Part shown: one piece after another, positions 1-16,512 of the stretch
Numbering within the stretch: the first letter of the stretch is position 1
Layout: every line of letters starts with the position of its first letter
IMG/VR virus record: IMGVR_UViG_3300045988_133601
Location: 1 to 17,220 of that record
Length of the DNA: 17,220 nt
Direction: 5' to 3' (one strand)
Source of the DNA: a virus
Position numbers and translations under genes: made by a program
Notes under the pieces: model-generated
What the model was told of the DNA's origin: nothing
Database searches by the model: none
Seen by the model: the letters and a program-made list of their open reading frames with translations, nothing else

Positions 1-76
1 AAAGATATATACTGTCCGTCCCACGCGGACATTTTCCCAATTTTGTCCGCGTACGGCGGACAGCACTTTGCACAAT

Positions 77-111
77 AAAAGCGGTGTCCGCCAGGGAAAG
101 ACACCGCTTTT
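77..111. terminator. Hairpin with flanking A4/T4 runs inside ITR-L (reads as an intrinsic terminator on either strand)
   Basis: aaaa-GCGGTGTC(81-88)-11 nt loop-GACACCGC(100-107)-tttt. Confidence 0.5.
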
Positions 112-150
112 GCAAACTATTTCATTGCATTTGTTCACTTTTTAATACTT

Positions 151-159
151 ATTATAACA
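151..159 (-). promoter_or_regulatory. Extended -10 element TGTTATAAT facing the left terminus
   Basis: The minus strand reads TGTTATAAT (159 to 151). There is no convincing -35. The hairpin/T-run at 111-77 lies about 35-65 nt downstream. Confidence 0.3.
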
Positions 160-192
160 CATATGCCCGAAATTTTTATGCATTTTTCCAAC

Positions 193-221
193 TTGACAAA
201 TACGCTTTACCCGACTAAAGT
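193..221 (+). promoter_or_regulatory. Sigma-A-like promoter facing inward (ITR-L copy)
   Basis: TTGACA (193-198), 17-nt spacer, TAAAGT (216-221). At this end it would fire antisense to the late genes; the mirrored copy at 17000-17028 points toward the early genes. Confidence 0.3.
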
Positions 222-776
222 GTTAGTCCCGTCTAATTGTCTATACAATTCAACAATTATTCACGTTTTCCTCCCGATTCACACACAATTCTTCCGTTTT
301 ATTAACTCATTTTACCCGAAAAGTGGGCAAAACCGCCAGTTTGTCCGCGGGTCGCGGACACATCGGAAACGGGGACTCACTTTAGTCTGCTAAAGTGTCC
401 GCGAGTGACGGACACGGCGCGTCCATTCGCTTCGCTCCCGTCCGCGCCTGCCCTTGCGGGGTCACCGCTCCGCGGTTGCCCGCGGCTGCCATGTGGTTGA
501 TTATATGTGTAACGTTTGTGATCGCCCGGTGTCGTCCGCTCCGCGGACTGCCTGTTATTTATATGTGTAAAGTTAGTAATCGTGAGTGATCGCTCGGTTG
601 TCCGCCGATGACCGCCGGAGGCGGTTGCCCTCCGGGTGGCGGACACGGGCGCGCCTGCCCTCCGGTGTCACCGCTTCGCGGTTGCCCATGGTTGCCCACG
701 TCGTCCGCTCCGCGGGATGCCCGTTGTTTATATATGTGTAATTCTTTGATACTTAGTTAATTAAAAGTTTCGTTAT

Positions 777-2429
777 TTAATTAACATCGTATGCAGATAA
801 ACAGTTACTTAGAATAGCAAAGAAACATGGATATAGGGAAATGTATGTTTCTTTTGTATCAACTGTCCACATAATAAGTGGTATATCATTACTAACGCAC
901 AAATTGTAAAATTTTTCGTTGAAATATATATAACCACCGCTCATCGCAACTGTGTTTGTATCTGTTCTTAATGATTGTATTTGTCTGATTACAGACATAA
1001 AACTGTTATCATCAAGTGTGGCTGAATATCCTGCGCCAATTCCTAATTTTGCATTAGGTAAAATGTTTTTTACCATAAGTAAATTATTATATGAAAATGA
1101 TATAAACCATACATTATCAATCATTCCATACTTCTTTACTATATTAATAATTGAATTTACCATATTTTCTGTATAAACAACTTCGTCTTTCAGTTCAATA
1201 AATGGTTTTAATCCATTTGATTTGCAAAAAGACATAAATTCATCAAAAGTAGGAATATGTGTCCCTTTGTATTTTGCATTTTTCCAGATACCAAAGTCAT
1301 AAGTCAATGCTTGCTGATAGGTTATATCTCTAATCGCAATATCACTTGTTAGTTTTGACCCGTCTGGATTTCGTGCTGTTCTGTTGATCGTGGCATCATG
1401 TAATAATACTGGTATATTATCAGATGTAAAAAGAACATCAGTTTCGACATACACAAAACCCTCTTTTGCTGATAACTCAAAAGCAGGAATTGTATTTTCG
1501 GGTGCAACTGTATTGAATCCTCTGTGATTAATAAAAATAACATTTGATGTAATATTTTTCATTTTTTTATTAAGATCAATTATATCTTTTTTTTCATTTT
1601 CTACTACATCAGTTATTCTCATATTAGAAGAAACATATTCTGGAGACAATATTTCACCAGTATCATAAAAATCAATTACAAACTGATAATTTCTATATTT
1701 ATTTGATAATTCATTAAAATTGACAGAATGAATGTATAGTGTATTATCGAAAATCTTGATAAAATCACTTCCATTCCACGTTCCAATATATACGTCATTT
1801 TGAAAAGCGCATACATACATTCTATATGACGATTCTACAATATATCTTTTGTTGACAAAACTTTTTGTCCTACACCAAGTTTTACTTTCTGTTTTAGTTC
1901 CGTCAACGATAGCGTAATAACCTTGTTCAATTTCTAATATCGTTGAATAGATATTATTGTTTAATTCTGTTTTTACTGATGTGATTCTTAATCCTGTTGA
2001 TTTAGAATCTGCGGCGGCATTTTCTATTGTTAATGACTTGTCGAGTGGCGGATTTGATGGATTAGTGATATTAGCTGTCAACCATGTTGTTACGTCATTG
2101 CTTACAGTTGGTGTCAACAAATTCAGCAGTGCTCCGCTATTTTTCATTTCTTCTATTTTCTTGTTGACTTCACCTTGTAAATCGAGATTTGTAAAAAACT
2201 GATTGATAAAATCATGTAATGCTTTATAACTTTTTACAAGTTCATCCTGCGCATCAAACATTTCTTTTACTGTCTTAAACAGCACAACGAATTTGTTTTC
2301 CAGACTCAACGTTCCATTGAAATCATACGGAATCCCCCGCACACTTGCTACAACTTCACACGCCTGCGTAATCATTTGACCGAAATCGGGCAAACTAGGA
2401 AAATTTGGAACTGTAGGTTTCTTTTCCAT
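777..2429 (-). CDS. Tail appendage / receptor-binding protein with C-terminal glycerophosphodiester phosphodiesterase (GDPD) domain
   Basis: 550 aa; SD AAGGAGGA upstream of the ATG at 2429. NHRGFNTVAPENTIPAFELSAKEGFVYVETDVLFTSDNIPVLLHD matches the HRG..PENT..AF...E.D...T.D...V.HD signature of the GDPD (GlpQ/UgpQ) family. It is the last gene of the structural block, the position of phi29 gp12. Confidence 0.8.
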   Translation of the reverse strand: MEKKPTVPNFPSLPDFGQMITQACEVVASVRGIPYDFNGTLSLENKFVVLFKTVKEMFDAQDELVKSYKALHDFINQFFTNLDLQGEVNKKIEEMKNSGALLNLLTPTVSNDVTTWLTANITNPSNPPLDKSLTIENAAADSKSTGLRITSVKTELNNNIYSTILEIEQGYYAIVDGTKTESKTWCRTKSFVNKRYIVESSYRMYVCAFQNDVYIGTWNGSDFIKIFDNTLYIHSVNFNELSNKYRNYQFVIDFYDTGEILSPEYVSSNMRITDVVENEKKDIIDLNKKMKNITSNVIFINHRGFNTVAPENTIPAFELSAKEGFVYVETDVLFTSDNIPVLLHDATINRTARNPDGSKLTSDIAIRDITYQQALTYDFGIWKNAKYKGTHIPTFDEFMSFCKSNGLKPFIELKDEVVYTENMVNSIINIVKKYGMIDNVWFISFSYNNLLMVKNILPNAKLGIGAGYSATLDDNSFMSVIRQIQSLRTDTNTVAMSGGYIYFNEKFYNLCVSNDIPLIMWTVDTKETYISLYPCFFAILSNCLSAYDVN

Positions 2430-2440
2430 TATTATCCTCC

Positions 2441-3202
2441 TTAATAAAATTGATAGAAAAGTTCTTTACAGTCATCGCAGATACGTTTGTTAAGATTAAG
2501 GATAGTATCGCGGAATCTCTGTATCTCTAAAGAGTAACTTCCGTCAAACCCCTCATCCTCAATCGTATCATTGTTATCTGCGTGATACGTGTCATTGCTA
2601 TTGGTTTTTGTGGTATTCTCGCCATTACTGATCGCGCTGTTGTGAATCGTATTTTGCCCCCGTTCCATCGTAGATGCGTAATTCGTTCCGGCAAAATTGA
2701 TCTGCGGATTGTCAGAGTGAATATTTTGTGTGTCGTTATTTGTATCGGCTGATGTTGTGTTTTTTGCTGTGCTGTCTCCGGAGATCACACCAGTTCGTGT
2801 ATCATCTTTCGTACTTGTTACTTTTCGCGTACTCTTATGAGTAATCAGCGGGTTATACTCAAAAGTAATACTCCGGTACAACTGCTCATAGTATGGCATA
2901 TTGAGTGTGAGAATCTTTTTTAGATGATATTGAAATTCTCCGACAGTTTCCAACCCGATCTGCTCGCGGAAATACTGCAAACAGAACGTTTTTTCGAATG
3001 CCAGCTTTACAGCGGCATATTCCACGGAATCTGCATCCACATAGAAAGGAAAATCAAAATTGAACACCAACGCAACCGCTTTTTCGATCATACCGTCAAT
3101 GTTTTGCTTTTCGAGGGGATGTATGACGTTATCTGCAATGACCAACTGTTCAATGGTATTCGTCAGTGTTTTGGTTTCGTAGTCATATTCAAGAAACATC
3201 AT
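2441..3202 (-). CDS. Lower collar protein (phi29 gp11-like by position)
   Basis: 253 aa; SD AAGGAGGTGG. It overlaps the portal stop by 4 nt and follows the portal as in phi29. The C-terminal half is S/T/N/D-rich. Homology not verified. Confidence 0.55.
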   Translation of the reverse strand: MMFLEYDYETKTLTNTIEQLVIADNVIHPLEKQNIDGMIEKAVALVFNFDFPFYVDADSVEYAAVKLAFEKTFCLQYFREQIGLETVGEFQYHLKKILTLNMPYYEQLYRSITFEYNPLITHKSTRKVTSTKDDTRTGVISGDSTAKNTTSADTNNDTQNIHSDNPQINFAGTNYASTMERGQNTIHNSAISNGENTTKTNSNDTYHADNNDTIEDEGFDGSYSLEIQRFRDTILNLNKRICDDCKELFYQFY

Positions 3203-4119
3203 TCCACCTCCTTATCATCTTCTTTGTTGTCAAAAACATCTGGTCTGTTAATCGGTGTCACCATTTTCGAATTAAAGCGAACATGGATATTAAGACCGTA
3301 CATTGCGTTAATCGCGTCAAGTCCTCTCTGAATGGTTGCCAGATTTCCGTTTCTTGTCAACTCGATTTCTCCATCGTTGTAACTCGTTTCCGCGGAAACT
3401 AGCCGTTCCGGTTTTTCAACGCCGCTTGCTTCGATTCCAAGGTCTGCCAGACACTCTGCCACTTCTCTCTGTGCGGCAGTATCTAACTCGTTAAAAATCG
3501 GCTGTACTTTCAGATCAATCGTGTCAATCTGAATCTGCTTTCTTAAATCGTTTTTCGCTTTGATAAATGGAATATTTTTAACCCACTTCTGAATAAAATT
3601 ATCAATCGACAACTTCTGTGTACTATCCCCGCTGATGACAACTGGCGTCCTCTGCTGAATGACGTTTACCCTTGTGGACGCTTTTTTCTCCGCCAAACTC
3701 TGTGCGTGCAGAATAATGCTGAGAATTTCAGGAACGGCAAAAGGTCTGGCAAAAATCAGCGCGCTTTCTTCCTTATCTGTCTGTTCGTAGTATTGCCCAT
3801 TCATGGCGTATGCAATCCAATCAGTTGGAATCCCGTAAATGTCGGGTTCACCAACCAGATTAACACCAAACACTCCGAAAAGTCCGGTGATTGGCTCTTT
3901 TTTAAACAGGCACATTCCTTGCCATAACAGATATGAGTTGAGCATCCGTGGTGGAATCTCATCCGGTAAACCGTCATACTCATACCGAGATAACGCTAGA
4001 TTTACAAACTTATCAAAAAAGTGTCGGAAATACATTTTTTCCTCCGGTGACGTATTCGGGTTATTTTCCCAGCGTCCCCAAACTTCTTTGTTGCTCACCC
4101 GATACGGGTTATTATACAT
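3199..4119 (-). CDS. Portal / upper collar connector (phi29 gp10-like)
   Basis: 306 aa (phi29 gp10 is 309 aa); SD AAGGAGGTG. EKPERLVSAETSYNDGEIE and INAMYGLNIHVRF resemble remembered gp10 segments EKKERMVTDEVSSNDEQIE and INELYGLNVKVKF. Confidence 0.85.
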   Translation of the reverse strand: MYNNPYRVSNKEVWGRWENNPNTSPEEKMYFRHFFDKFVNLALSRYEYDGLPDEIPPRMLNSYLLWQGMCLFKKEPITGLFGVFGVNLVGEPDIYGIPTDWIAYAMNGQYYEQTDKEESALIFARPFAVPEILSIILHAQSLAEKKASTRVNVIQQRTPVVISGDSTQKLSIDNFIQKWVKNIPFIKAKNDLRKQIQIDTIDLKVQPIFNELDTAAQREVAECLADLGIEASGVEKPERLVSAETSYNDGEIELTRNGNLATIQRGLDAINAMYGLNIHVRFNSKMVTPINRPDVFDNKEDDKEVE

Positions 4120-4131
4120 GACATCACCTCC

Positions 4132-5697
4132 TTAATCATTGGAAAGACCATAGTTTCCAACATCGTCCGTATGCCAGAACGTAACGCCCTTGTTAAACAT
4201 TGACTGTAAAAAGTTGATATCATCGGTGACGCAAGTTCCATGCAATCCACAATTTACGGTTTTAACAAAATTCCAGTTTGTTCGCCCGGTGATATTCGGC
4301 ACTTTGATTCTATGCGTTGCATATCCGTACATGGTGAAATAATCGTCAATTACTTTCGCCATTTCTGGCGTTACACACATTGTCTTTAGAGCAATGGTAT
4401 TGCTAAAAAGTGCTGTTTGTACATAACTTCCAGTAGCACTTCCTTTTGCAGTTGGTGGAATTAAATCGTGTTGCTCCATCTGTGCTGAAATATTTTCGCC
4501 AAACATAAAATTGCTTACTGTCTGACCGATACTGCTTTCGATGGCTTTTCCGAAATTACCGCTTAATACGTTTGCAATGGTTGATACAACACTTTTTCCA
4601 GTATCAATATACTGCTGTTTTGTCTGATAATCCCATATAGGTTGAGACTGTGCAAGCCATGCTTGATACGCGTCATTTGTCCACGCGCAAGTTGGGAAAT
4701 TGCTATAGGTAAACGCATATGGTGTGTTAGCAGTAAGTTCATGTTTATAATTTTTTGGATAAATGTATATTGATGGAATATTTAATTTTACACCTTGCGC
4801 GGTAAATGTAATCTTTTGATCTTTGAAATATTCAAGTCGAAAAACATATTGTGTTCCATCGTGTGCGTCTGCGATTAAGTACGAAAACGGATATTGGAAA
4901 AGTTTTTTATTTTTTGGTGTATATCCTGCAAGTGTTGACGGGAAAATCATGGAAAAATCTTTTGGACTTTCAGAAAAACATAAATTGGGCGCTTGAAATA
5001 TAGATACAATGGCATCCGCGTTACCACTTTTTGAATAGGCTTGAATTTTTTGCTTTATTGTATCAAAATCAGTCGTGCTAAAATAAGTCAAGCCAGACAT
5101 AATTTTTTGATTTAATTCCGGCTCCAGTGCAACACCGTTTTCATCTGCGCTTGCAATGAGACAATAGTTCATCAGTCCGAAACCCATACCAGCAGAAGTA
5201 TTAACTATATATTCTCCCGTTTCCAGATTTTCGGGGACTAGATTCGCACCTACTGCGTCATCTGCTTTCGCAACGTGTTCTCGCTCTACATAGCACGGTT
5301 GAAGTACCACATCGTAAAAACTGTTCTGAAAACGATCGGGTTCGAAATAAATCTTGAAACTTCCGTCACTCAACCATTCTACGCGCGTCACAAAACCGAA
5401 ATACCATTCTTCCGTATAGGGTTTGTTCTGAAAAGCAATATAATTGCATTTCAGAAAATCACTCTCATTCCCTTTTCCTTTATACGTCAGTTCCCCCCAT
5501 CGTACCGGGGCAGACTGCATAAACGTATGAATCGCTTTTTCCTTTACGTGCGCCAGGCACCCTGCTTTTCCGTTTTCGTAGTATCTTACGTGTTCATAAT
5601 CGTTTCCCCACTCAATCCCACTAGCTAAAATAACCGTTGTCTGCGGGGAAACCGCCGCCACATCTGTATGCGGCGGCATCGGAATAAAATTATCCAT
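4132..5697 (-). CDS. Tail knob / distal tube protein (phi29 gp9-like)
   Basis: CNYIAFQNKPYTEEWYFGFVTRVEW..YFEPDRFQN resembles remembered gp9 SYIMFQNADYGNKWFYAFVTELEF..HFEIDVLQT. The ORF track starts at GTG 5706, but ATG 5697 sits at proper spacing behind GAGAGGTGG, so 5697 is preferred. Confidence 0.8.
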   Translation of the reverse strand: MDNFIPMPPHTDVAAVSPQTTVILASGIEWGNDYEHVRYYENGKAGCLAHVKEKAIHTFMQSAPVRWGELTYKGKGNESDFLKCNYIAFQNKPYTEEWYFGFVTRVEWLSDGSFKIYFEPDRFQNSFYDVVLQPCYVEREHVAKADDAVGANLVPENLETGEYIVNTSAGMGFGLMNYCLIASADENGVALEPELNQKIMSGLTYFSTTDFDTIKQKIQAYSKSGNADAIVSIFQAPNLCFSESPKDFSMIFPSTLAGYTPKNKKLFQYPFSYLIADAHDGTQYVFRLEYFKDQKITFTAQGVKLNIPSIYIYPKNYKHELTANTPYAFTYSNFPTCAWTNDAYQAWLAQSQPIWDYQTKQQYIDTGKSVVSTIANVLSGNFGKAIESSIGQTVSNFMFGENISAQMEQHDLIPPTAKGSATGSYVQTALFSNTIALKTMCVTPEMAKVIDDYFTMYGYATHRIKVPNITGRTNWNFVKTVNCGLHGTCVTDDINFLQSMFNKGVTFWHTDDVGNYGLSND

Positions 5698-5711
5698 GTT
5701 TCCCACCTCTC

Positions 5712-7022
5712 TTAATCGGAAGTAAAGTAAATGGTTGCCGTTTTGGAAGAATCGTAACGACTGGTGATCACAACTTTAACACTATCTGTTTCATTTGCTT
5801 TCGGTTTCAAATTCTTTTCATCTTTTGCAATTCGAAGAATTGTTGTACCCGGAATAACAAACGTATCGGCAGAAGAGTTACCCTTTACTTTTACGTCAAT
5901 CGCTTTATCAGATACCCCTTTAGAAGTAACTGAAAAACTTCTGCCAAAGTCCACATCTGTTCCAGCTTTCACCAGTTCCACGTCACTTGCGGTAATGGAA
6001 GAAACATCAACCGTCTCGGTCGTAAACACAATGATCGGATAAAACAGTGAGTACGAGAACATCTCTTTTACTGTATACGTACTGTTCCAACGCAGTCCGC
6101 GATTAACGTTATCCTGTACCATCATGCGATACTGTTCGCGGATTTTGAAAAACCGCTTGTCCACCAGCACGGCAACAATATCCTCAGCATCGTTAAAGTT
6201 ATCAATTAAAACCTGCTGTGCTTTCGGAATCATCCGGTCGAGATTGTACGCGCTTGCATAACTGTCAACGTTCATCGCGGCTTTGGTATCTGGGTCGACA
6301 AACAGAAGAATGGTATCTTCTTTTGCCGCCGATGTCGCGCCTGCAAAGTTGTACAGTGGGTTCGGAAACTGAATTTTATCAATATAAGACTGAATCTGTT
6401 TTGCAAGCGCATTGGCACTCGCCTGGTCAGTAACCGGGTCTACGTGTACCGGATAAATCTGACCCTTGCTCTTTGCAGATGCAATCAGTTCTTTTGCCGT
6501 GGTAAACTCATCCCAGTTACAAGCGGAAACGACACTCTCTACTTTTGCCTGTACCAGACTTCTGAGTCCGTAATCATCGAGAAATGCGCCGCGCATATCC
6601 TCAAACCAGATCGTCACCGGATAATCGTTGTTGAAATTGATTACATGATACAGCGCCATGATATAGCTGTCATAAATGGCGGTCGCATCTTCGATGCTGA
6701 TATTCGCATCGTGCGCATAGCCCTGTGCAAAATTTACGTAGACTTCCTGTTCTCCGTTTCCAAACGGCATGGCGTTACTATTCAACACGCGCAGAGGATT
6801 GCGGAACGCTTCGGTACTGATGGACTGGCTGGCAATCAGATTGACTAGTGCCGGAACGAGTTCGTTTCTTGCCATCGGATTGTATGGGTCAGTTAACGTT
6901 TTCGCAATATCTGCGATATTTTCGCGTGTTGCCACAGGGACGCGGTCACGGTAATCAACGCTCATCGTCTGCCGAACGGCGTTCAGCATATTAATATTGG
7001 TCATATCTAATTTTTCTGCCAT
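5712..7022 (-). CDS. Major capsid protein (phi29 gp8-like), probably with a C-terminal Ig-like domain
   Basis: 436 aa; SD GGAGAG. NMLNAVRQ..YRDRVPVATRENIADIA and AVLVDKRFFKIREQYRMMVQDNVNRGLRWNSTY resemble remembered gp8 segments IVNAIRNS..FKSYVPLATANNVAEVG and [33 protein letters not shown]. The beta-rich C-terminal ~90 aa sits where gp8 has its BIG2 domain. Confidence 0.9.
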   Translation of the reverse strand: MAEKLDMTNINMLNAVRQTMSVDYRDRVPVATRENIADIAKTLTDPYNPMARNELVPALVNLIASQSISTEAFRNPLRVLNSNAMPFGNGEQEVYVNFAQGYAHDANISIEDATAIYDSYIMALYHVINFNNDYPVTIWFEDMRGAFLDDYGLRSLVQAKVESVVSACNWDEFTTAKELIASAKSKGQIYPVHVDPVTDQASANALAKQIQSYIDKIQFPNPLYNFAGATSAAKEDTILLFVDPDTKAAMNVDSYASAYNLDRMIPKAQQVLIDNFNDAEDIVAVLVDKRFFKIREQYRMMVQDNVNRGLRWNSTYTVKEMFSYSLFYPIIVFTTETVDVSSITASDVELVKAGTDVDFGRSFSVTSKGVSDKAIDVKVKGNSSADTFVIPGTTILRIAKDEKNLKPKANETDSVKVVITSRYDSSKTATIYFTSD

Positions 7023-7026
7023 GTTT

Positions 7027-7371
7027 TCACTCTCCTTTTCCGCTCATGATGAGCTGAGACATATCAAGATCATTGATACTTGTTGCGGTTTCTTCCGGTT
7101 TCGGCGCGTTTCCGCCAAACTCGGTTACTTTTGTGATACTTCCGCCGTGGGAAAGATCAGACCAGCGGCTTTTGATTTCTGCGACCGCGGAATCATACTT
7201 TCCGCGCAGTTCGTCCCGTTCCGCAACCAGCGCGTCACGTTCGGACATCAGCGCTCCGATATCGGTATCTTCGGTTTTGATTTTTTCGCTTATGGCGGCG
7301 ATTGCGTCACCGTGCGTTTCGATGTTTCCAATGTCTGCTACAATTTCTGTCCAATACTCTTCAAGTGTCAT
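7027..7371 (-). CDS. Scaffolding protein (phi29 gp7-like by position)
   Basis: 114 aa, acidic and coiled-coil-like (EKIKTEDTDIGALMSERDALVAERDELRGKYDSAVAEIK), directly upstream of the capsid gene; SD AGGAGG. Confidence 0.6.
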   Translation of the reverse strand: MTLEEYWTEIVADIGNIETHGDAIAAISEKIKTEDTDIGALMSERDALVAERDELRGKYDSAVAEIKSRWSDLSHGGSITKVTEFGGNAPKPEETATSINDLDMSQLIMSGKGE

Positions 7372-7372
7372 G

Positions 7373-8428
7373 TTAAAACCTCCTGTTTAAATTGGGATAT
7401 AACCAGATCGGCATTTTATGCCGTTTTGGTTTCATTGGGTGGGGCGGCTCGGGCGGTTCCGGTTGTTCTCCTTTTGCCAGATACCGATATACCATAATAG
7501 CGTTATTCAATCGTTCGGAATCGGATAGATAGCGATTTCCAACAATCCATCCGGTAATTGCAGAATCTTTTGCGTGTTCGGAAATATAATTGAAGCACTC
7601 GTGCGCTTTTTCCTGCCGAAAAGCTAGCGTTCCATCGTCACTGATACCCTCCCACCCTTTCATATAGGCGGCGGTCAATGCGTCTAGATCGGTACTGTCA
7701 CTGTGCAAAAACGCTTGCAGATTTTCGTAAACACTAGCGGCTCCGACCGAATACCAAACATTTTCATAAATCAGATATTCTAACTGCGCGTTACCATCGT
7801 CCCGGCTGTACCCGTTTGCGTCAAGCCAATTAAATAACTGCGTCCGCCGATTGGTGTCGGCGTTATCCGTCCACTGACCCAGACCATAACCGGGCGAGCC
7901 GACAATCGTGCCTTGCCACAATCCAGGATTGATGGTTGACTCCTGCCAGAAGTTGCCACAGATGGCGGCAATTACATACTGGCTGATACCGCTTTGTACC
8001 TCAACTGGGTATCGGTACAGATACGTCCATGCGCTATAGGGAGATACAAACGTATTGATAGATACCTGTCTTTCCAGTGGGTAGCTATCGGTGTGCGCCC
8101 CCATGGTATACCCGCCGCCGTCTGCCGGGTCATATACCATTTCGGTATGCCCGGAACGCCACAAAATATCGCCTTTTTTCCAAGGCTGGTTTGCGGTTCC
8201 TTTTTGGAATCCCGCACCGATCAGATACCCGTCCATGCTCCGAGTGGTAAACCACGGGTTGCTTGCCAAAAAACCACCAACTGTACAACAATAACTCATA
8301 AGGGATGAACAATCATAGTACGTAATCCCTCCCACGGTCTGCCCCTCACGATACGTTTGGGAATAACCCACGTTTGGATTATTACAAATTTGTATGCAAG
8401 TATTATAAGCAAGTGTCAGATCAGCCAC
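7373..8428 (-). CDS. Tail-associated peptidoglycan hydrolase (Amidase_5/NlpC-P60-like N-domain plus phage-tail-lysozyme-like C-domain); functional analogue of phi29 gp13
   Basis: 351 aa, GTG start behind AGAGGGA. The N-domain has GYSQ..YYDCSSL..PWKKGDILWRSGHTEMV (Cys/His hydrolase signature, paralogous to the endolysin next door). The C-domain has AICGNFWQESTINPGLWQG...GYGLGQWT, typical of phage tail lysozyme domains. It lies between the lysis and head genes. Confidence 0.7.
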   Translation of the reverse strand: MADLTLAYNTCIQICNNPNVGYSQTYREGQTVGGITYYDCSSLMSYCCTVGGFLASNPWFTTRSMDGYLIGAGFQKGTANQPWKKGDILWRSGHTEMVYDPADGGGYTMGAHTDSYPLERQVSINTFVSPYSAWTYLYRYPVEVQSGISQYVIAAICGNFWQESTINPGLWQGTIVGSPGYGLGQWTDNADTNRRTQLFNWLDANGYSRDDGNAQLEYLIYENVWYSVGAASVYENLQAFLHSDSTDLDALTAAYMKGWEGISDDGTLAFRQEKAHECFNYISEHAKDSAITGWIVGNRYLSDSERLNNAIMVYRYLAKGEQPEPPEPPHPMKPKRHKMPIWLYPNLNRRF

Positions 8429-9113
8429 GGGTCAGTCCCTCTTTTGCAACGTAACCGGTATAGACGATTCCATTGACAACCGCTTTTACAAGATACCACT
8501 CATTTGTATAATACCCGTAGTTTCTAACACTGGTTCCGGTCGGCAACGTTAAAATGACCGTTTTATCCATTCCCGCGCCAACACGCAGATTGTAGCGATC
8601 ATTGGTATGATACGCTCCTGCAATTTTCCGGTCAAAACTACGCGCGGATTCTGTTTTGATTGAGTTTTCCATAATGTTCTGTGGTTTGTCGTTTTTTCCC
8701 GCATACCGATAATGGACGGTATTCTCATACGGCAGATCATAATAAGTCCGTACACAAATTTCTCTTCCGGTCTGATCGCCCGTCTGTCCATCAATGCCGC
8801 CGTTTTCGGACTGACTGGCGTGGACAATGCGGTTCGCGTCAACCGACATAGTAACATGATGACCAGCCGCAAGGTGGATATCCCCTCGCCGCCATGGTTT
8901 CTCAGCTTTCACAAAACCGGAACTTTCCAACTGTTCACCGAGATTTCTTGTGGTGCTATACTGACTGACCGGAAACCCAGCTTTTGCAAGTGCAGTTCCT
9001 ACCAGACTAGAACAATCATAATCAGGTCCATTCCGGTGTACCTGTGAGTAACCGTGGCGATCATCGGCGGCGATCTGTTCCTCCCATGCAACTGCGTTTT
9101 CGATTTTACTCAT
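8421..9113 (-). CDS. Endolysin: Amidase_5 (Pal-like, NlpC/P60 superfamily) catalytic domain plus SH3b-type wall-binding domain
   Basis: HGYSQVHRNGPDYDCSSLVGTALAKAGF ... PWRRGDIHLAAGHHVTMSVDANRIVHAS resembles the remembered Dp-1 Pal amidase (YSMDFRDGPDSYDCSSSMYYALRSAG ... RGDIFIWG..GHTGMF..NIIHC). The C-terminal YNLRVGAGMDKTVILTLPTGTSVRNYGYYTNEWYLVKA..GYV is SH3b-like. ATG 9113 behind AGGAGGTGG is preferred over GTG 9122 of the ORF track. Confidence 0.8.
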   Translation of the reverse strand: MSKIENAVAWEEQIAADDRHGYSQVHRNGPDYDCSSLVGTALAKAGFPVSQYSTTRNLGEQLESSGFVKAEKPWRRGDIHLAAGHHVTMSVDANRIVHASQSENGGIDGQTGDQTGREICVRTYYDLPYENTVHYRYAGKNDKPQNIMENSIKTESARSFDRKIAGAYHTNDRYNLRVGAGMDKTVILTLPTGTSVRNYGYYTNEWYLVKAVVNGIVYTGYVAKEGLTRG

Positions 9114-9303
9114 TCTTTCCACCTCCTAAGTGCTGGCAAAGCGAATTAATCGCGGTTGTATTCGCTTCTACACTTTTCCGTAATTCTTCCATTTCTTCCT
9201 TGTGTGCGTCTTTTTCTTTCACAAGATACCAAAAAAGCGCGCCGCAACAAACGATTGGAAAACCGAGACTGCCAATTAACTGTGTTACCATCGTTACATC
9301 CAT
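9106..9303 (-). CDS. Holin (BhlA/UviB-like: one N-terminal TM helix plus charged coiled C-terminus)
   Basis: 65 aa; SD GGAGGTGG. LIGSLGFPIVCCGALFWYLVKEKDAHKEEMEELRK fits the BhlA/UviB pattern (TM followed by YvlKE...E). It is immediately upstream of and overlaps the endolysin. Confidence 0.6.
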   Translation of the reverse strand: MDVTMVTQLIGSLGFPIVCCGALFWYLVKEKDAHKEEMEELRKSVEANTTAINSLCQHLGGGKNE

Positions 9304-9584
9304 TCTTCCACCTCCGTATCATTCCATTTCAACCAGTCCTCAATCTCACTAACTTTATCACACATAATAAAGTTATGAATGAATCGGATTGGCGATTTAC
9401 TGTTATAAGAGTTGCCATCCATGAAAAAATAATCCCATAAGTAACGGATATGAGATTCATAATTTTCATGTGGGACGAGAATCAACGTGTCTTTCTCATC
9501 CCCTCTATAACGTACCGTATAAGCAAGGTAGGCATTTTCTTTTTTCATCATTCCGACAATCATATTAAAAACGATATTCGCCAT
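9294..9584 (-). CDS. Hypothetical protein, first gene of the lysis cassette
   Basis: 96 aa from ATG 9584 behind AAAGGAGC. The longer 123-aa ORF-track version (9665) has no SD and would run through the promoter leader. No recognisable motif and no TM segment. Confidence 0.6.
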   Translation of the reverse strand: MANIVFNMIVGMMKKENAYLAYTVRYRGDEKDTLILVPHENYESHIRYLWDYFFMDGNSYNSKSPIRFIHNFIMCDKVSEIEDWLKWNDTEVEEWM

Positions 9585-9694
9585 CTCTGCTCCTTTCTTC
9601 CTGTCCATAAAACAAGGAAACCTTTTGACCTGCCAAGGACAGGGCGGTTTACTCAACCGTGGCAACCCCTTTTAAAAGGTTTCCCCGTATTTTT

Positions 9695-9723
9695 ATGATA
9701 CATCTTTTTTATCCGTATGTCAA
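9695..9723 (-). promoter_or_regulatory. Sigma-A-like promoter for the lysis/structural genes
   Basis: Minus strand: TTGACA (9723-9718), 17-nt spacer, TATCAT (9700-9695), in the only sizeable gap of the late block (9585-9747). Confidence 0.45.
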
Positions 9724-9747
9724 GTACATTTGTCCGTCTCCCACGAA

Positions 9748-10887
9748 CTATTTATAAAGATCAATCCCTAGTAACTCAACAGCCATATTCTTGCTGTCTA
9801 GATCGTCAAACCGCAAATATGCTTTGCGGTATGCGTCAACTAGATTTTCAAACAAATAATCATAGTGTTCCAACATAACCGTGTTTTGGGTATGATCACC
9901 GTCCCGAAAAACCGCGACAAAATTACAAGACGGGTTATAGTTGTGCGTGATATAGATATACCCCTCTTCGTAATACTCATATACCCCATAACTTTTTCCA
10001 CTATGCTCGATGGTGAACAGATACCGCGACCGTCCGGTCGGCTTTTGTACAAACACGGCATCATCAATCAACATCTGATCTCCAACACTCATGCTTTGCA
10101 TATAGTGACCGCCGCGGAATGCTTTCAAAGCAGTATTCTCCCACATGGCTTTACTGGCACTGTCATTGTGAGTAAACTCACACACAAAACCGCTCCCATG
10201 CAGCATTTTTGTTTCTTTCTGGTATCTCTTATGGATACCAAAAAATACAAAATAGGGATTGAGCAACGAAATATTATTGGATGCCATCACCAGTTTAAAC
10301 CATCGGGACTGACTTCCGTTTCCGCGGCTAATCGTCAATAGCAACGATTGCAGTTTTTCAGATTCCCCTTTTACGTATTGTCCGCTTTCCATGCTGAACT
10401 CGTCAAAAAACAAAAAGTAGATATCCCGAAAATACGGAGACGCTTTTTTTACAATGTCCATCTTACTTCCAAAACTAAACGCGCATCCGAATGGCACGCC
10501 GTCCAGAAAATACCGCACAACATTTCCGTTTTTGTCCAGATTTTTATAGGTAATCACACTTCCTAATTTAGGATACATTCTTAGCATATCTTCGTACATC
10601 GCCGCCGCTCCCGTCATTTCCCCTTTCGTCCGGAAAATCCATCCGGTCTGCAATCCGTACTCTTTGCACAAGATACAGCTTGCCGCGGCGAACGCACTTG
10701 TCTTTCCGGCGCTACGGTTGGAACACGTAATTGCCACTCCAGCGAATTCCCCGTCCACGTCCGGCTCGGTAAACAAGCGGATCGGGTTATAATACTGGAT
10801 CGGCTTGCCATCATCCGAGACCGCTTCAAATTTCACATCATAATCTTCAAAAAGTTTTTCCCAATTGATATCATTCCAAAAAATCAT
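9748..10887 (-). CDS. DNA encapsidation ATPase (phi29 gp16-like)
   Basis: 379 aa. Walker A is SNRSAGKTS and Walker B is IYFLFFDEF. NNISLLNPYFVFFGI and AYLRFDDLDSKNMAVELLG resemble remembered gp16 segments SNAVSVVNPYFLFFNL and GYLRFDNQVIRNIAYELF. Confidence 0.9.
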   Translation of the reverse strand: MIFWNDINWEKLFEDYDVKFEAVSDDGKPIQYYNPIRLFTEPDVDGEFAGVAITCSNRSAGKTSAFAAASCILCKEYGLQTGWIFRTKGEMTGAAAMYEDMLRMYPKLGSVITYKNLDKNGNVVRYFLDGVPFGCAFSFGSKMDIVKKASPYFRDIYFLFFDEFSMESGQYVKGESEKLQSLLLTISRGNGSQSRWFKLVMASNNISLLNPYFVFFGIHKRYQKETKMLHGSGFVCEFTHNDSASKAMWENTALKAFRGGHYMQSMSVGDQMLIDDAVFVQKPTGRSRYLFTIEHSGKSYGVYEYYEEGYIYITHNYNPSCNFVAVFRDGDHTQNTVMLEHYDYLFENLVDAYRKAYLRFDDLDSKNMAVELLGIDLYK

Positions 10888-10913
10888 TGTTCACGTGAAA
10901 CATTTTGTTTCAC
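10871..10913 (-). promoter_or_regulatory. ATPase translation-initiation region: SD-led 10-codon upstream ORF (10903-10871) overlapping the ATPase ATG, embedded in three consecutive hairpin arms
   Basis: The minus strand reads GGAGGAA-GTGAAACA-aaa-TGTTTCAC-GTGAACA-ATG. The only SD serves ATG 10903 (MFHVNNDFLE*, +1 frame relative to the ATPase); the ATPase ATG 10887 has no SD of its own. Confidence 0.4.
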
Positions 10914-10971
10914 TTCCTCCTTTCTATCGTTTCCACAACCCGCGCACCGCGTCCCGCATAATCTATGTTAA

Positions 10972-10990
10972 CCGCCAGTTCCCCGCCAGT
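10972..10990. repeat. Two CCGCCAGT boxes 11 bp apart (same 8-mer also at 333-340, 11193-11200 and mirrored at 16881-16888)
   Basis: aaCCGCCAGTtcc-cCGCCAGTct read directly. The first copy shares the 11-mer AACCGCCAGTT with ITR position 331-341. Confidence 0.7.
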
Positions 10991-11003
10991 CTCTCAGCAG
11001 ACA

Positions 11004-11033
11004 ATCTCACGTTTATCGCACGATGATCGCACG
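11004..11033. repeat. Three iteron-like direct repeats ATC(T/G)CACG with an exact 11-bp period
   Basis: ATCTCACG 11004-11011, ATCGCACG 11015-11022, ATCGCACG 11026-11033. Confidence 0.7.
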
Positions 11034-11078
11034 TTTTGACTGCGGATGGACGGCGGGTAAGGGCAGAGCTTCGCTGGG

Positions 11079-11112
11079 TATAAAAAGAGCTACGCTGGAA
11101 AACGTAGCTCTC
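11079..11112 (-). terminator. Rho-independent terminator downstream of the early/middle genes
   Basis: Minus strand: AGAGCTACG (11111-11103), 8-nt loop, CGTAGCTCT (11094-11086), then TTTTATA. Confidence 0.65.
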
Positions 11113-11132
11113 TTACACGTATGGAATGAAGT

Positions 11133-11161
11133 TTTATAACACAAGATATAGTAACAATCAA
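11133..11161 (-). promoter_or_regulatory. Sigma-A-like promoter with extended -10, only ~15 nt upstream of the terminator hairpin
   Basis: Minus strand: TTGATT (11161-11156), 17-nt spacer ending in TGt, TATAAA (11138-11133). Confidence 0.4.
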
Positions 11162-11227
11162 CTACAGGTAACATCAATACTCAAGTTACCGTCCGCCAGT
11201 CGGAGCGCGTACCCAGTTCATGGTTAC

Positions 11228-11650
11228 TTATTCCATAAATGGGTTAAACTTTTCGGTATCACCGAACTTATGAACGTTTACCGCGGAAAGGTATGCGGTG
11301 AATCCCTTGTCGCGACGGAACTTGCTTTCTCCGATAGAGATGAACAGGTCAACTACTGCGCCTTTTCCGAGTTCGTCAACGCTCGAAACGGTGTCGCTCT
11401 CTACGCTGTCCTCGTAAAAAGCTACTTTATAGCTGGTCTGCGCTTTTACGTAAAGTCCATCTTTGTCGGTTTCTTTTGCAGGAATCCATTTTGCTTCTGC
11501 GGCGGCATCTTCGCCAAACTCTTCGATGATTTTTTCAAAAATGTCTTTCTGCTGATCGGCAGAGATAGACGCGGAAAGAACACTTTTTCCGTCTTCCTCT
11601 TTTGCGTATTTAACAGTTACGTTGTTCAGTCTCATTTTCGCTTTGCTCAT
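11228..11650 (-). CDS. Probable single-stranded DNA-binding protein (T7 gp2.5 / DUF2815-like), otherwise hypothetical
   Basis: 140 aa from ATG 11650 behind AAAGGAGAA; ATG 11674 of the ORF track has no SD. MRLNNVTVKYAKEE.. and ELGKGAVVDLFISIGESKF..KGFTAYLSAVNVHKF follow the gp2.5-like pattern (G.G..V.....S......G.....L.AV). Aromatic/acidic C-terminus FNPFME. It follows a p6-like gene, as gene 5 follows gene 6 in phi29. Confidence 0.45.
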   Translation of the reverse strand: MSKAKMRLNNVTVKYAKEEDGKSVLSASISADQQKDIFEKIIEEFGEDAAAEAKWIPAKETDKDGLYVKAQTSYKVAFYEDSVESDTVSSVDELGKGAVVDLFISIGESKFRRDKGFTAYLSAVNVHKFGDTEKFNPFME

Positions 11651-11755
11651 GATTTCGTTCTCCTTTTGATTCATTTATTTGTTATGCAAAACCGCGGCGC
11701 GTTGCTTTGATCGGTTACGTCTTATCTGGACGATTCCAGACCGCGGGTTGTGCGC

Positions 11756-12025
11756 TTAGTCCATTCGTTTTGCTTCTGCAAAACACTGCTCATCCGGCAT
11801 TCTTTTTGCTTCTGCAAAAAACTGCTCATCCGGCATTTCGTAGCGGGCGGAAACGGTGTCGGTTAAGACACAAACAGAATTTTCTGCGTAGCCTGCGGAA
11901 GTGAGCGCGTTTACTTTTGCTTTCTGAGATTTTAATTCTACGGTGGACTCAAAAAAGCCGATCACCTGTTTTGTGTTTCTGTCAATGACAGAATAGATAA
12001 ATTTTTCGATTTTTGTTCTAACCAT
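11756..12025 (-). CDS. Small early protein, possible phi29 p6-like dsDNA-binding protein, with a duplicated C-terminal 12-aa unit
   Basis: 89 aa; SD AAAGGAGAA. SARYEMPDEQFFAEAKR resembles the remembered p6 segment TEVYELPVEKFLEVATV. MPDEQFFAEAKR is repeated as MPDEQCFAEAKR. Confidence 0.4.
   Translation of the reverse strand: MVRTKIEKFIYSVIDRNTKQVIGFFESTVELKSQKAKVNALTSAGYAENSVCVLTDTVSARYEMPDEQFFAEAKRMPDEQCFAEAKRMD
11761..11832. repeat. 36-bp tandem direct repeat, two copies, in frame inside the 89-aa gene
   Basis: 11761-11796 vs 11797-11832 differ at 2 of 36 positions, one synonymous (Arg CGA/AGA) and one Cys/Phe. Confidence 0.9.
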
Positions 12026-12070
12026 TTTTTTTCTCCTTTCGTTATGTGGTTATTTGTTCTTACAAGTATT

Positions 12071-12099
12071 ATAATAGCACTGCCTACCAAAAAAGTCAA
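12071..12099 (-). promoter_or_regulatory. Sigma-A-like promoter in front of the p6-like/SSB gene pair
   Basis: Minus strand: TTGACT (12099-12094), 17-nt spacer ending TGc, TATTAT (12076-12071). Confidence 0.5.
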
Positions 12100-12102
12100 T
12101 AG

Positions 12103-12225
12103 TTAAAATAAGAAAATAAAGAAAATATCCAAAAATAAAAGCAGGATGGAAAGGTCGAGTTCTTCTTCATGTAACGCCCAGATCGTTGATAATACTAAAA
12201 ACATAAAAAACACAAAATATCTCAT
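12103..12225 (-). CDS. 40-aa strongly hydrophobic mini-protein (two predicted TM segments), below the ORF-track cutoff
   Basis: Hand translation: MRYFVFFMFLVLSTIWALHEEELDLSILLLFLDIFFIFLF*. SD AGGAGA overlaps the polymerase stop codon and lies 5 nt before the ATG (translational coupling). Confidence 0.5.
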   Translation of the reverse strand: MRYFVFFMFLVLSTIWALHEEELDLSILLLFLDIFFIFLF

Positions 12226-12233
12226 ATCGTCTC

Positions 12234-14393: not shown

Positions 14394-14401
14394 TTTTACA
14401 C

Positions 14402-14980: not shown

Positions 14981-15204
14981 TCACACCCCCTTATAGTTAA
15001 GATTATGCCCTCATCATTTGAATCAATTTCAATTACTTCTTCGCTCAGTAACACACGGTTGCCATTATCAATATTTGCTATTCCATTCTTTGCAAGAAAA
15101 CTTGTTATCATGATATCATGTTTTTTACCAAAAATACTCATTCTCGCTTTGATAGTAATACGAGTATAACTTAAACACAATTCCGTAATATCTTTTACTC
15201 TCAT
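14977..15204 (-). CDS. Small early protein, paralogue family member A
   Basis: 75 aa; SD GGAGGTG; 4-nt overlaps with both neighbours. N-terminus MRVKDI..ITIKAR..IFG parallels the next gene. Confidence 0.7.
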   Translation of the reverse strand: MRVKDITELCLSYTRITIKARMSIFGKKHDIMITSFLAKNGIANIDNGNRVLLSEEVIEIDSNDEGIILTIRGCE

Positions 15205-15446: not shown

Positions 15447-15449
15447 TTC

Positions 15450-15698: not shown

Positions 15699-15718
15699 AT
15701 CAAGTCTCCTTTCTACAA

Positions 15719-16096: not shown

Positions 16097-16144
16097 GTTA
16101 TCCTCTTTTCTCCCCGTATTGCCGATAGATCAGCAGTTTTAATT

Positions 16145-16423: not shown

Positions 16424-16480
16424 TTTTGTTTCCTCCATTTTCTATTTTTGTATTATTGGTTTTTCCTTGTTTCTGATATT

Positions 16481-16509: not shown

Positions 16510-16512
16510 TGC

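Follow-up and report, generated by a model that had tools for sequence, protein, structure and literature searches.

Organization of the genome

The DNA analysed here, which we refer to as the window, is the complete linear genome of a small gut phage, 17,220 bp in length. Nucleotides 1–649 are the reverse complement of nt 16572–17220 except for two mismatches (at 628 and 644), and they form the inverted terminal repeat (ITR). The features discussed below are collected in Table 1. The nearest cultured relative of the encoded family B DNA polymerase (PolB) is that of Clostridium phage HM2, with 45% identity; at the DNA level, INPHARED yielded nothing useful whether it was queried with the full genome, the ITR or the terminal module. 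Many independent IMG/VR contigs start at the same terminal base, with AAA[C/G/T]ATAT, and the AAA of the terminal dodecamer is presumed to be available for sliding-back.

Table 1. Features of the window, in order of position (TP, terminal protein).
Feature	Position (nt)	Strand	Remarks
Terminal A/T-rich dodecamer AAAGATATATAC	1–12		Presumed core origin; TP-linked end
Site 1, TGTCCGTCCCACGCGGACA	13–31		TGTCCG-N7-CGGACA; core invariant in 36 close relatives, position kept in 23 divergent lineages
Spacer TTTTCCCAATTT	32–43		12 nt, between sites 1 and 2; TTCCC(C) element
Site 2, TGTCCGCGTACGGCGGACA	44–62		31 bp (three helical turns) from site 1
Hairpin AAAAGCGGTGTC/GACACCGCTTTT	77–111		Perfect 12-bp stem; houses site 3
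Site 3, TGTCCGCCAGGGAAAGACA	85–103		N7 spacing kept; right half degenerate (AAGACA)
Promoter-like element	193–221 / 17028–17000		Inward; right-end copy faces early genes
Site 4, TGTCCGCGGGTCGCGGACA	342–360		N7 geometry
Palindrome CACTTTAG-N4-CTAAAGTG	378–397		Precedes site 5
Site 5, TGTCCGCGAGTGACGGACA	396–414		N7 geometry
GC-rich (~64%) variable repeat zone	420–745		Units A-B-C-B'-D-A'-C'-B''
Early protein, 89 aa	11756–12025	−	Possibly p6-like, dsDNA-binding; candidate reader or co-factor
Protein-primed family B DNA polymerase, 719 aa	12234–14393	−	7972 relatives, many with PF03175
Putative terminal protein, 192 aa	14402–14980	−	Immediately upstream of PolB; candidate reader
Site 5, right ITR	16807–16825		
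Site 4, right ITR	16861–16879		
Hairpin, right ITR	17110–17144		Contains site 3 (17118–17136)
Site 2, right ITR	17159–17177		
Site 1, right ITR	17190–17208		

Apart from the sites that are the subject of this account, the ITR contains a sigma-70-like element, TTGACA-17-TAAAGT, which lies between the outer and inner groups of sites. An ORF at 163–393 was considered as a gene and rejected; only 22 of 36 relatives have it intact, and it runs across the promoter-like element. Rfam gave no family match in the ITR and no pRNA match anywhere in the genome, and a search for structured RNA in nt 225–760 returned a folding z of only −1.6.

The array of palindromic sites

Within the ITR the pentamer GTCCG starts at positions 14, 45, 86, 343, 397, 440, 534 and 600, and CGGAC at 26, 57, 355, 409, 544 and 640. 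A first-pass annotation had drawn attention to these half-sites, and to five palindromes that they form, and placed all of them at the correct coordinates. The enrichment that it claimed is upheld by comparison with 2000 dinucleotide-preserving shuffles of nt 1–649, in which the expected number of half-sites is 1.66 (s.d. 1.22, maximum 8) against the 14 observed; for GTCCG-N3–9-CGGAC palindromes the corresponding figures are 0.005 and five. In the unique region (nt 650–16571) half-sites occur at chance frequency, 24 against 19.8 ± 4.1, and there is no GTCCG-N3–9-CGGAC palindrome. The array is genuine and is confined to the ITR. The mismatch at 644 leaves the right-hand copy with one half-site fewer.

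The palindromes had been described as variously spaced. They exist, but when measured from the pentamer the four main ones do not differ in spacing: all are 17-mers of the form GTCCG-N7-CGGAC (starting at 14, 45, 343 and 397), and their common geometry is TGTCCG-N7-CGGACA (sites 1, 2, 4 and 5). The half-degenerate site 3, 41 bp (four turns) from site 2, has equivalents in other lineages. It lies within a hairpin (−12.9 kcal/mol, z −4.5) that is flanked by T-runs on both strands and hence terminator-like in both directions; some relatives have the loop in reverse-complemented form.

The remaining half-sites (440, 534/544, 600/640 and 703) fall in the repeat zone, inside which the ITR boundary (649) also lies. 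Those at 599–606 and 638–645 are present, as was said, but they are not single, being the two arms of one 47-nt compound palindrome. The palindrome at 534–548 likewise exists, but its spacer is N5 from the pentamer and it is a member of a separate repeat family; the degenerate copy reported at 703–716 is real too, but sits inside a second copy of that family (700–737). The copy number of the repeats differs among relatives, one of which (L100) skips from 424 to 702. We would not count the half-sites in 420–649 with the conserved array, as had been done, since this hypervariable, GC-rich zone is missing from some close relatives; the repeat zone is probably outside the core array.

Conservation in close and distant relatives

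If the half-sites bind a protein, they might be kept while the spacers drift, as had been anticipated, and this is what is observed in both close and distant relatives. Among 36 distinct ITRs of close relatives, 4% of the core columns are variable compared with 30% for the rest of nt 13–420 (Fisher p = 1e-4), and the site centres vary at 43% of columns. For the nine alignment rows that carry PolB-search locus ids, the figures are 0% for the core and 17% (p = 6e-4). An exact copy of site 4 is found ~340 nt from the ends in 49 viral contig stretches.

The module also occurs at both ends of distant uncultured phi29-like phages of 12.6–17.5 kb, with PolB 33–47% identical. IMG/VR contig ends provided 23 distinct terminal modules composed of 12 nt, a 19-mer, a TTCCCC spacer and a second 19-mer; these include complete genomes of 12.6–14.2 kb, with PolB identities of 33–41% and GC contents of 28–47%. 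The spacer between sites 1 and 2 is 12–13 nt in 18 of the 23 lineages (the search window allowed 8–16 nt) and in most has a TTCCCC-like element, while the distance from the end to site 1 is exactly 12 nt in 31 of 32 contig ends beginning with AAA. It should be noted that most of the distant examples were found by a pattern with fixed GTCC/GGAC cores, so that the invariance of the core among them is partly by construction. L132, found via PolB alone (47% identity), has AGTCC-N9-GGACA, an 11-nt spacer and TGTCC-N9-GGACA at contig positions 1–49. Of the other distant relatives with usable ends retrieved by PolB, Clostridium phage HM2 has only a degenerate form of the module, and Amedibacillus phage AD70P2 has different terminal palindromes. 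The earlier remark that no comparable array was known at phi29-like ends holds for the cultured phages searched, but not for their uncultured relatives, in which such arrays are widespread, nor wholly for HM2.

Relatives have two to seven sites, ~31–33 bp apart. If sites with no more than one core mismatch are counted, 13 genomes show a density in their terminal 450 nt that is 33–275 times that of the interior. Forty of 52 adjacent spacings are 30–34 bp and two are 66 bp; among spacings free of any constraint from the search pattern, the proportion at 30–34 bp is 18 of 29. One lineage (L156) has five sites 32–33 bp apart. The shortest ITRs, of 54 bp (L202) and 63 bp (L191), stop right after site 2, such that a minimal ITR is the two-site module with a few bases before it. 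Both genomes have an extra site past the ITR at either end, and the two copies are not identical, which argues that the sites are under selection and not merely copied. Matches to the pattern inside phage contigs of 35–58 kb are of mixed kinds, including replisome-organiser origins, Streptomyces-type repeats and TGTCCTT-N5-AAGGACA pairs, and these internal matches gave no pointer to a reader protein.

A proposed role in replication initiation

The two sites nearest the physical end are the most conserved part of the array, which is consistent with the suggestion, made at the outset, that a replication-origin nucleoprotein complex assembles there. We consider it rather probable, judging from sequence comparison, that the TGTCCG-N7-CGGACA array is a set of phased, sequence-specific protein-binding sites that serves as an auxiliary origin for TP-primed replication; both protein binding and origin activation are what we infer. 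A protein with two-fold symmetry, presumably a dimer, would bind the TGTCCG-N7-CGGACA elements. The sites would then lie on one face of the helix, integral turns apart (31 and then 41 bp), starting 12 bp from the TP-capped ends, and together with the TTCCC spacer they would form an auxiliary replication-origin module. The bound array might mark the genome end, aid melting of the A/T-rich terminal dodecamer and, at both ends, bring the heterodimer of TP and DNA polymerase into position for protein-primed initiation. The three inner sites (85–103, 342–360 and 396–414) could extend or stabilize the same nucleoprotein complex. That distant uncultured relatives keep the layout suggests a docking platform by which ends are marked for protein-primed replication.

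Parallels with other replicons

Adenovirus has a comparable layout. Its ITR contains a core origin (nt 1–18) and auxiliary NFI and Oct-1 sites at ~nt 25–50, so that, as here, a dyad site adjoins a short terminal core origin within both ITRs of a protein-primed linear genome; in the window, site 1 begins at nt 13 of both ends. Binding of NFI and Oct-1 stimulates initiation by positioning the pTP–pol complex, and by analogy the sites described here may do likewise. Adenovirus differs in using host transcription factors at one site each, whereas these phages have two to seven phased copies of one type of site, and bacterial hosts.

The phi29 ITR is 6 bp, and phi29 protein p6 reads bendability, with a 12/24-bp periodicity, and not sequence. 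The multimeric p6 complex, nucleated 46–125 bp from each TP-capped end, both unwinds the terminus and activates TP-primed initiation (PMC4974454). Among the early proteins of the window, one of 89 aa weakly resembles p6 in structure and sequence. In contrast to the p6 complex, the present array has a strict TGTCC(G)-N-(C)GGACA consensus of 19 bp and a spacing of 30–34 bp.

Origin iterons are likewise repeated, helically phased initiator-binding sites beside an A/T-rich melting region, and the window has five sites, with spacings of 31 and 41 bp, after an A/T-rich 12-mer. Iterons, however, tend to be direct repeats that bind a Rep protein at internal origins of the theta or sigma type, whereas the present sites are dyads located at the very ends of the DNA, and no early protein was found to have a Rep-like domain. 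The Streptomyces Tap/Tpg telomeres and the ITRs of the pGKL killer plasmids, with their terminal recognition factor TRF1, also belong to TP-capped linear replicons, in which the terminal 100–200 nt have short GC-rich palindromes or a specific ITR-binding factor. The Streptomyces palindromes differ in that they are fold-backs of a 3' overhang that act in end patching after internal bidirectional replication; Tap/Tpg-like proteins were not detected, the early proteins being without a Pfam match. REP/REPIN elements were considered and ruled out, as the sites are restricted to the ITR and the centres of sites 1 and 2 are non-complementary in most lineages.

What is recognized: duplex, hairpin or other signal

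The arms of a palindrome can pair, and cruciforms had been offered as an alternative to protein binding. These are unlikely: stems are of only 5–8 bp with loops of 3–9 nt, and the arms show no covariation. The TGTCC/GGACA stem is fixed across very divergent lineages. In 19 of 23 copies of site 1 a C at position 8 faces a C at position 12, a conserved mismatch, and in some lineages only 5 bp are paired; this implies that it is the sequence and not the pairing that is conserved.

The same observations bear on another proposal, that the palindromes act as hairpins in the ssDNA displaced during strand-displacement replication and structure its 3' end. Terminal hairpins, or pairing of site 1 with site 2, might keep the last 11–12 nt single-stranded and accessible; alternatively, a specific hairpin might be offered to a protein, leading to TP-primed initiation on the displaced strand. 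Each site in the window folds at −5.8 to −9.5 kcal/mol (z −3.4 to −4.1) and even the weakest variants at ~−3 kcal/mol, while for nt 1–115 as a whole, where site 1 pairs with site 2 and nt 1–11 stay free, the value is −34 kcal/mol (z −7.5). The top strand of the module is also consistently C-rich; recognition of a dyad site purely as duplex would not call for such an asymmetry between strands. The long fold-back of site 1 on site 2 is peculiar to the window, because the two centres are non-complementary in most lineages, and it was rejected as a general feature. Moreover, the TGTCC/GGACA stem is fixed, without compensatory drift, at 33% PolB identity, the ‘loop’ positions 8, 12 and 13 are conserved, and helical phasing, seen here at 31–33 bp, belongs to duplex DNA. 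The mode of phi29-type replication, with initiation at both duplex ends and SSB on the displaced strand, also speaks against hairpins. We regard this proposal as unlikely.

Transcriptional control in the ITR seems to us less probable still. The sites could be operators, roadblocks or terminators that repress the promoter-like element (193–221/17028–17000) or insulate the ends from leftward late or early read-through. The position of that element, reading inward between the groups of sites and aimed at the early genes from the right end, fits such a role, as does the hairpin at 77–111, and in phi29 p6 and p4 couple origin complexes to promoter control (PMC4974454). Yet the best-conserved sites lie at nt 13–62, outside any possible start of a transcription unit, and the two end sites are the sole sequence shared by the shortest ITRs. 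In a scan for intrinsic terminators (a GC-rich stem-loop with a T-run) only the hairpin at 77–111 qualified; the N7 sites did not come up in that scan and have no U-tracts, except for TTTT after site 1. Lineages differ widely in how far the nearest promoter lies from the sites, whereas the offset from the DNA end is constant at 12 nt.

Recruitment of a conserved host DNA-binding protein, for replication, silencing or segregation, has in our estimation only a slender chance of being correct. Host factors do act in comparable systems, NFI and Oct-1 in adenovirus, and Spo0A and Spo0J by binding to phi29 DNA. A cellular reader would explain why the motif is kept in phages that share few early proteins and range in GC content from 28% to 47%, and a host system is already exploited, as most of these phages have one to four perfect parS sites (that in the window, at 14334–14349, is away from the array). 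The parS sites, together with the kinship to Clostridium phage HM2, suggest hosts among spore-forming Clostridia. The motif, however, resembles none of the consensus sequences considered, among them those for parS, the 0A box, LexA and DnaA; by inspection the sites differ from the first three (TGTTNCACGTGAAACA, TGTCGAA and CGAACN4GTTCG), and there is no LexA box in the window. When 185,579 species genomes were scanned for paired sites, the pattern turned up at 36 places; most of these were in high-GC genomes, none was in an identified Bacillota genome and none looked like part of a regulon, although the requirement for paired sites makes this a weak test. The matches were REPIN-like repeats in high-GC genomes, coding repeats (QLSEKIGQ) and iteron-like arrays; the REPIN-like matches in an Acetobacteraceae MAG are a different thing.

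A role for the array in packaging or end recognition by a phi29-type motor (ATPase/connector), in place of replication, is highly improbable. In its favour, the few proteins that all motif-bearing genomes have kept include those of the connector, capsid and collar, and adenovirus has repeated packaging elements near its ITR; but phi29-type packaging recognizes the terminal protein and not DNA sequence, identical arrays at both ends give no polarity, and a fixed 12-nt offset from the priming end suits initiation better.

Candidate reader proteins

If the array is indeed an auxiliary origin, the candidates for the protein that reads it are TP or PolB, the 89-aa protein (which is possibly p6-like), a different small early protein, or a factor from the host. 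Searches of Pfam and PHROGs recognized no sequence-specific DNA-binding domain and no Rep-like domain in any early protein, and Pfam, PHROGs and PDB sequence searches with the small early proteins and TP gave nothing significant. When profiles of the small early proteins were compared between lineages, the clusters of TP were the only ones to be linked.

The 89-aa protein had been singled out as a candidate DNA-binding protein, and this is supported by a confident AF2 model (pLDDT 80.6) whose best matches, themselves weak, include phi29 p6-type dsDNA-binding proteins. The Foldseek matches to p6 or ‘double-strand binding protein’ recur but have E values of 0.017–0.48, none at or below 1e-3; hhalign against p6 gives E 0.008 with a probability of 5%, and the two proteins have a local YE[ML]PxExF motif in common. 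The protein is thus possibly p6-like. It is awkward for a dedicated small site-reader that no small early protein is present in all motif-bearing lineages.

PolB and TP are the only early or replication proteins detectably common to all of those lineages, virion proteins being common too; for TP the homologues are detected with hhalign (97%). TP has a weak local match to the Ser232 motif of phi29 TP, and its model is all-helical, of low confidence and without a fold match. Since no other replication proteins accompany the motif in every lineage, TP or the TP–polymerase complex may itself read the phased TGTCC-N9-GGACA dyads 12 nt from the end, in a large uncultured clade of phi29-like gut phages. 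This we put forward tentatively, as a possibility that is itself more doubtful than not. An unrelated 35.9-kb GC-rich contig (L154) carries seven copies of the same dyad-plus-TTCCCC unit at its end, which hints that the site and its reader are a module portable between different linear replicons.

Implications

Protein-primed replication is understood almost wholly from phi29, PRD1, Cp-1 and adenovirus, and in the phage models DNA past the last few bases has been thought relevant only through non-specific architecture; phi29 ends rely on parental TP and a non-specific p6 scaffold. A defined 19-bp site that keeps both its distance from the end and its helical phasing, conserved in uncultured lineages numbering thousands, would provide a testable cis-element for origin specificity and a handle for finding the protein that reads it. 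If TP or the TP–polymerase complex reads the dyads, these phages would have sequence-specific origin recognition, unlike phi29. The order of 12 nt, TGTCCG-N7-CGGACA, TTCCCC and TGTCCG-N7-CGGACA can also be used in practice to verify that metagenomic contigs of this clade extend to the physical end of the genome, and the module may aid the design of minimal origins for orthogonal phi29-style replication systems in vitro.

Genome organization and terminal repeats

The window is the complete linear genome (17,220 bp) of a phi29-like podophage. All genes are on the minus strand, spanning 777 to 16438, and the two terminal inverted repeats (ITRs) are reverse-complementary with two mismatches. The protein-primed family B polymerase (PolB), the putative terminal protein (TP) encoded directly upstream of it, a gp16-type packaging ATPase, a phi29-type capsid protein, a connector, a gp9-type tail protein and lysins were assigned through the Pfam labels of syntenic relatives. 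No GenBank phage matches the window at the DNA level; PolB has thousands of relatives in metagenomes, the nearest cultured one being that of Clostridium phage HM2 (45% identity).

The first-pass annotation had described the ITR as saturated with half-sites (GTCCG or CGGAC), and the count of 14 in 1-649 is confirmed. The GC content of 331-720 is 64%, against 41.5% for the genome overall, but local GC-richness does not explain the count, because dinucleotide shuffles of the same segment (n = 2000) give 1.66 +/- 1.22 half-sites, with a maximum of 8. Palindromes of the form GTCCG-N3-9-CGGAC number five in the ITR, where 0.005 would be expected. In the 15.9-kb unique region there is no such palindrome, and there are 24 half-sites where 19.8 are expected, 20 of them as GTCCG on the plus strand, a bias taken as a coding-strand effect. 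The array is confined to the ITR.

Features of the window and their coordinates
Feature	Position	Strand	Remarks
ITRs	1-649; 16572-17220
Sites 1, 2, 4 and 5	13-31; 44-62; 342-360; 396-414		TGTCCG-N7-CGGACA, measured from the pentamers
Site 3	85-103		TGTCCGCCAGGGAAAGACA; N7 spacing kept, right half degenerate
Hairpin	77-111; 17110-17144		perfect 12-bp stem; terminator-like in both directions
Repeat zone	420-745		about 64% GC; diverged repeats, units A-B-C-B'-D-A'-C'-B''
Remaining half-sites	440; 534/544; 600/640; 703		within the repeat zone
parS, second copy	10887-10902		2 mismatches; start of the ATPase gene
Non-coding stretch	10888-11227	minus	340 nt; immediately upstream of the packaging ATPase
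89-aa protein	11756-12025	minus	after PolB
PolB	12234-14393	minus
parS, perfect	14334-14349		TGTTTCACGTGAAACA, 16 bp; within the PolB gene
Putative TP	14402-14980	minus
Cys-rich early protein	15719-16096
Early promoter	16509-16481	minus	TTGACA-17-TATTGT
Palindromes TTTCTAGAAA	16514-16523; 16526-16535		perfect
Palindrome TTTCTAGAAA	16492-16501		1 mismatch

The palindromes themselves are real, and the array is more regular than had been described, since spacing measured from the pentamers is identical at four sites. Site 3 falls in the loop region of a hairpin. If sites with no more than one mismatch across the ten outer bases are counted, the two ITRs together hold ten and the rest of the genome a single one, so that density differs 120-fold. 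Site-to-site spacings of 31 and 41 bp correspond to three and four helical turns. The 11-nt hairpin loop is reverse-complemented in some close relatives (L125, L101, L019 and others; CGCCAGGGAAA vs TTTCCCTGGCG), a flip/flop inversion of an element between inverted arms.

The ITR boundary lies inside the GC-rich repeat zone. This zone was left out of the conserved array because its length and arrangement (copy number and order of units) vary among close relatives; one of them, L100, passes directly from 424 to 702 and lacks 425-701.

Conservation among close relatives

A polymerase-based search together with an exact-palindrome search yielded more than 100 loci whose PolB is 89-96% identical. 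Many independent contigs terminate at one shared base, their end reading AAA[C/G/T]ATAT, which supports these as true physical ends. Positions 1-450 were aligned for 36 distinct ITR sequences, a column being counted as variable when the minor allele occurred in at least two. The first-pass annotation had proposed to check for conserved half-sites with drifting spacers, and this is what is found: 4% of columns vary in the GTCCG/CGGAC cores, 43% at the seven central positions and 30% in the rest of 13-420 (core vs rest, p = 1e-4). The nine rows carrying locus identifiers from the PolB search give 0% for cores vs 17% (p = 6e-4). T13 is mostly A in relatives, and the conserved unit of site 1 is therefore GTCCG...CGGACA.

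The module in distant relatives

L132, a locus discovered through its polymerase only (47% identity), starts with AGTCCTTGAGAGAAGGACA, followed by an 11-nt spacer and TGTCCACGAGTGAAGGACA; its geometry is identical to that of the window sites and its inner bases are different. IMG/VR was scanned for two GTCC-N9-GGACA units with 8-16 nt between them, giving at least 118 stretches. It should be noted that this pattern fixes GTCC/GGAC, so that invariance there is by construction; the informative properties are position, spacing, spacer, positions 6-14 and restriction to ends. In most cases the match is no farther than about 75 nt from a contig end, those set back being preceded by remnants of sequencing adapters, and contigs of 12.6-14.2 kb often have a match at each end. 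In L134, L194, L196 and L205, remnants of the Nextera transposase adapter (AGATGTGTATAAGAGACAG) are joined on a few bases away from the true end of the genome, an assembly artefact that displaces apparent termini.

The polymerases of these 12.6-14.2-kb genomes (28% to 47% GC) are only 33-41% identical to that of the window. Their TP is remotely homologous (hhalign 97%), and they also share with the window the capsid and connector proteins and some further proteins of the virion and of lysis; no small early protein is shared. All 23 mutually distinct modules consist of a 19-mer, a spacer and a second 19-mer, the spacer being 12-13 nt in 18 of the 23, in a search that had allowed 8-16, and usually containing TTCCCC. 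Exactly 12 nt precede site 1 in 31 of 32 AAA-starting contig ends. Of 52 distances between neighbouring sites, 40 fall at 30-34 bp and two at 66 bp; of the 29 on which the search pattern imposes no constraint, 18 fall at 30-34 bp. In L156 five sites follow one another at intervals of 32-33 bp. A comparison of the terminal 450 nt with the interior in 13 genomes gives a site density 33-275 times higher at the ends. ITRs are shortest in L202 (54 bp) and L191 (63 bp), where they stop directly after site 2, and each end has an additional, non-identical site beyond. Clostridium phage HM2 carries a degenerate version at the same positions as the window; Amedibacillus phage AD70P2 has terminal palindromes of another type. 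The feature is a conserved, family-wide terminal module.

The same dyad-plus-TTCCCC unit ends an unrelated GC-rich 35.9-kb viral contig (L154, IMGVR_UViG_3300031553_000017), where 1-215 holds seven tandem units, CTGTCCTAG-N3-CTAGGACAG + TTCCCCATC, 30-33 bp apart.

Descriptions of such sites in phi29-like ITRs did not turn up in full-text literature searches: a review on the diversity of phi29-like phages and a Dutch study of the gut virome mention the ITRs merely as such, and a paper on C. perfringens podophages gives ITRs of 25-30 bp without internal motifs.

Protein-binding site or DNA structure

The earlier interpretation was twofold, an end-proximal protein-binding array or cruciform-forming elements; it is partly supported, the former being favoured. 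In the 19-mer, G/C predominates at positions 6/14, where symmetric or asymmetric changes are seen now and then. The top strand has C at both 8 and 12 in 19 of 23 site-1 copies, a conserved mismatch, and A predominates at position 13. No more than 5-7 bp can therefore pair, and 'loop' bases are conserved. Hairpins in displaced single strands are possible, since the sites as single-stranded DNA fold at -3 to -9.5 kcal/mol; a purely structural role is nevertheless opposed by the limited pairing, the conserved 'loop' and a stem that never shows compensatory substitution across lineages diverged to 33% polymerase identity. For the same reasons, the C/C mismatch included, cruciform extrusion from duplex fits poorly. 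Site 1 of the window can pair with site 2 (1-115 folds at -34 kcal/mol, z -7.5); the centres of these two sites lack complementarity in most other lineages. Sequence-specific recognition is required whether the site is duplex or hairpin. Phasing at 31-33 bp belongs to duplex DNA.

Other elements

Perfect parS sites occur in most relatives (L001-L080, L127, L145, L138 and others) at 1-4 per roughly 14 kb, against about 3e-5 by chance; with those of the window they recall the Spo0J/parS sites of phi29 for entrapment in spores, and point to ParB-carrying, probably spore-forming, hosts. The TTTCTAGAAA palindromes flank or overlap the early promoter, an arrangement also present in the relative L127 (about 187-213), and look like an operator set distinct from the TGTCCG sites. 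Two relatives have perfect LexA boxes of the Gram-positive (Cheo) type, CGAACN4GTTCG, close to their ends (L145, 288-301; L129, 20-33); the window has none, even at one mismatch. The non-coding stretch comprises a strong terminator and then a GC-rich segment (RNA fold z -2.56), is 76-96% identical in 93 relatives and has no Rfam match; it is a possible analogue of packaging RNA (pRNA).

Candidate readers and proposed mechanism

TP and PolB are the only early or replication proteins conserved in every motif-bearing lineage. For TP, structure prediction gives a helical model of low confidence. Residues 108-112 of the putative TP are FDNSG (F108 and S111 invariant, D109 and G112 nearly so) and align locally with FDSEG around the phi29 TP priming Ser232 (very weak statistically; hhalign probability < 1%), S111 being a candidate priming residue. 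The 89-aa protein is modelled with confidence as beta-beta-alpha-beta-alpha; no structural match is better than weak (E > 0.001), but phi29 p6 and Bacillus phage 'double-strand binding proteins' recur among the best, and a YE[ML]PxExF motif is common to the 89-aa protein and p6. Its C-terminus is a tandem duplication of PDEQ[F/C]FAEAKRM that most relatives (77-78 aa) do not have. A Cys-rich motif (C-x5-6-C-x2-C-P ... C ... C), possibly a metal-binding module, is common to early proteins of the window and L128 (about 200-390). A host factor may instead read the sites; when a single genome from each bacterial and archaeal species was scanned for paired sites, no matching regulon emerged.

We lean towards a sequence-specific, origin-proximal binding array as the function of the sites. 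The phased dimer-binding sites would act as an auxiliary origin, in which a nucleoprotein complex with its anchor at nt 13-62, lengthened by the inner sites, would mark the genome end, aid opening of the terminal A/T-rich dodecamer and bring the TP-polymerase complex into position. The array is proposed to work like the adenovirus NFI/Oct-1 auxiliary origin and the phi29 p6 complex (PMC4974454), although, in contrast to p6, it would be sequence-specific and of another period.
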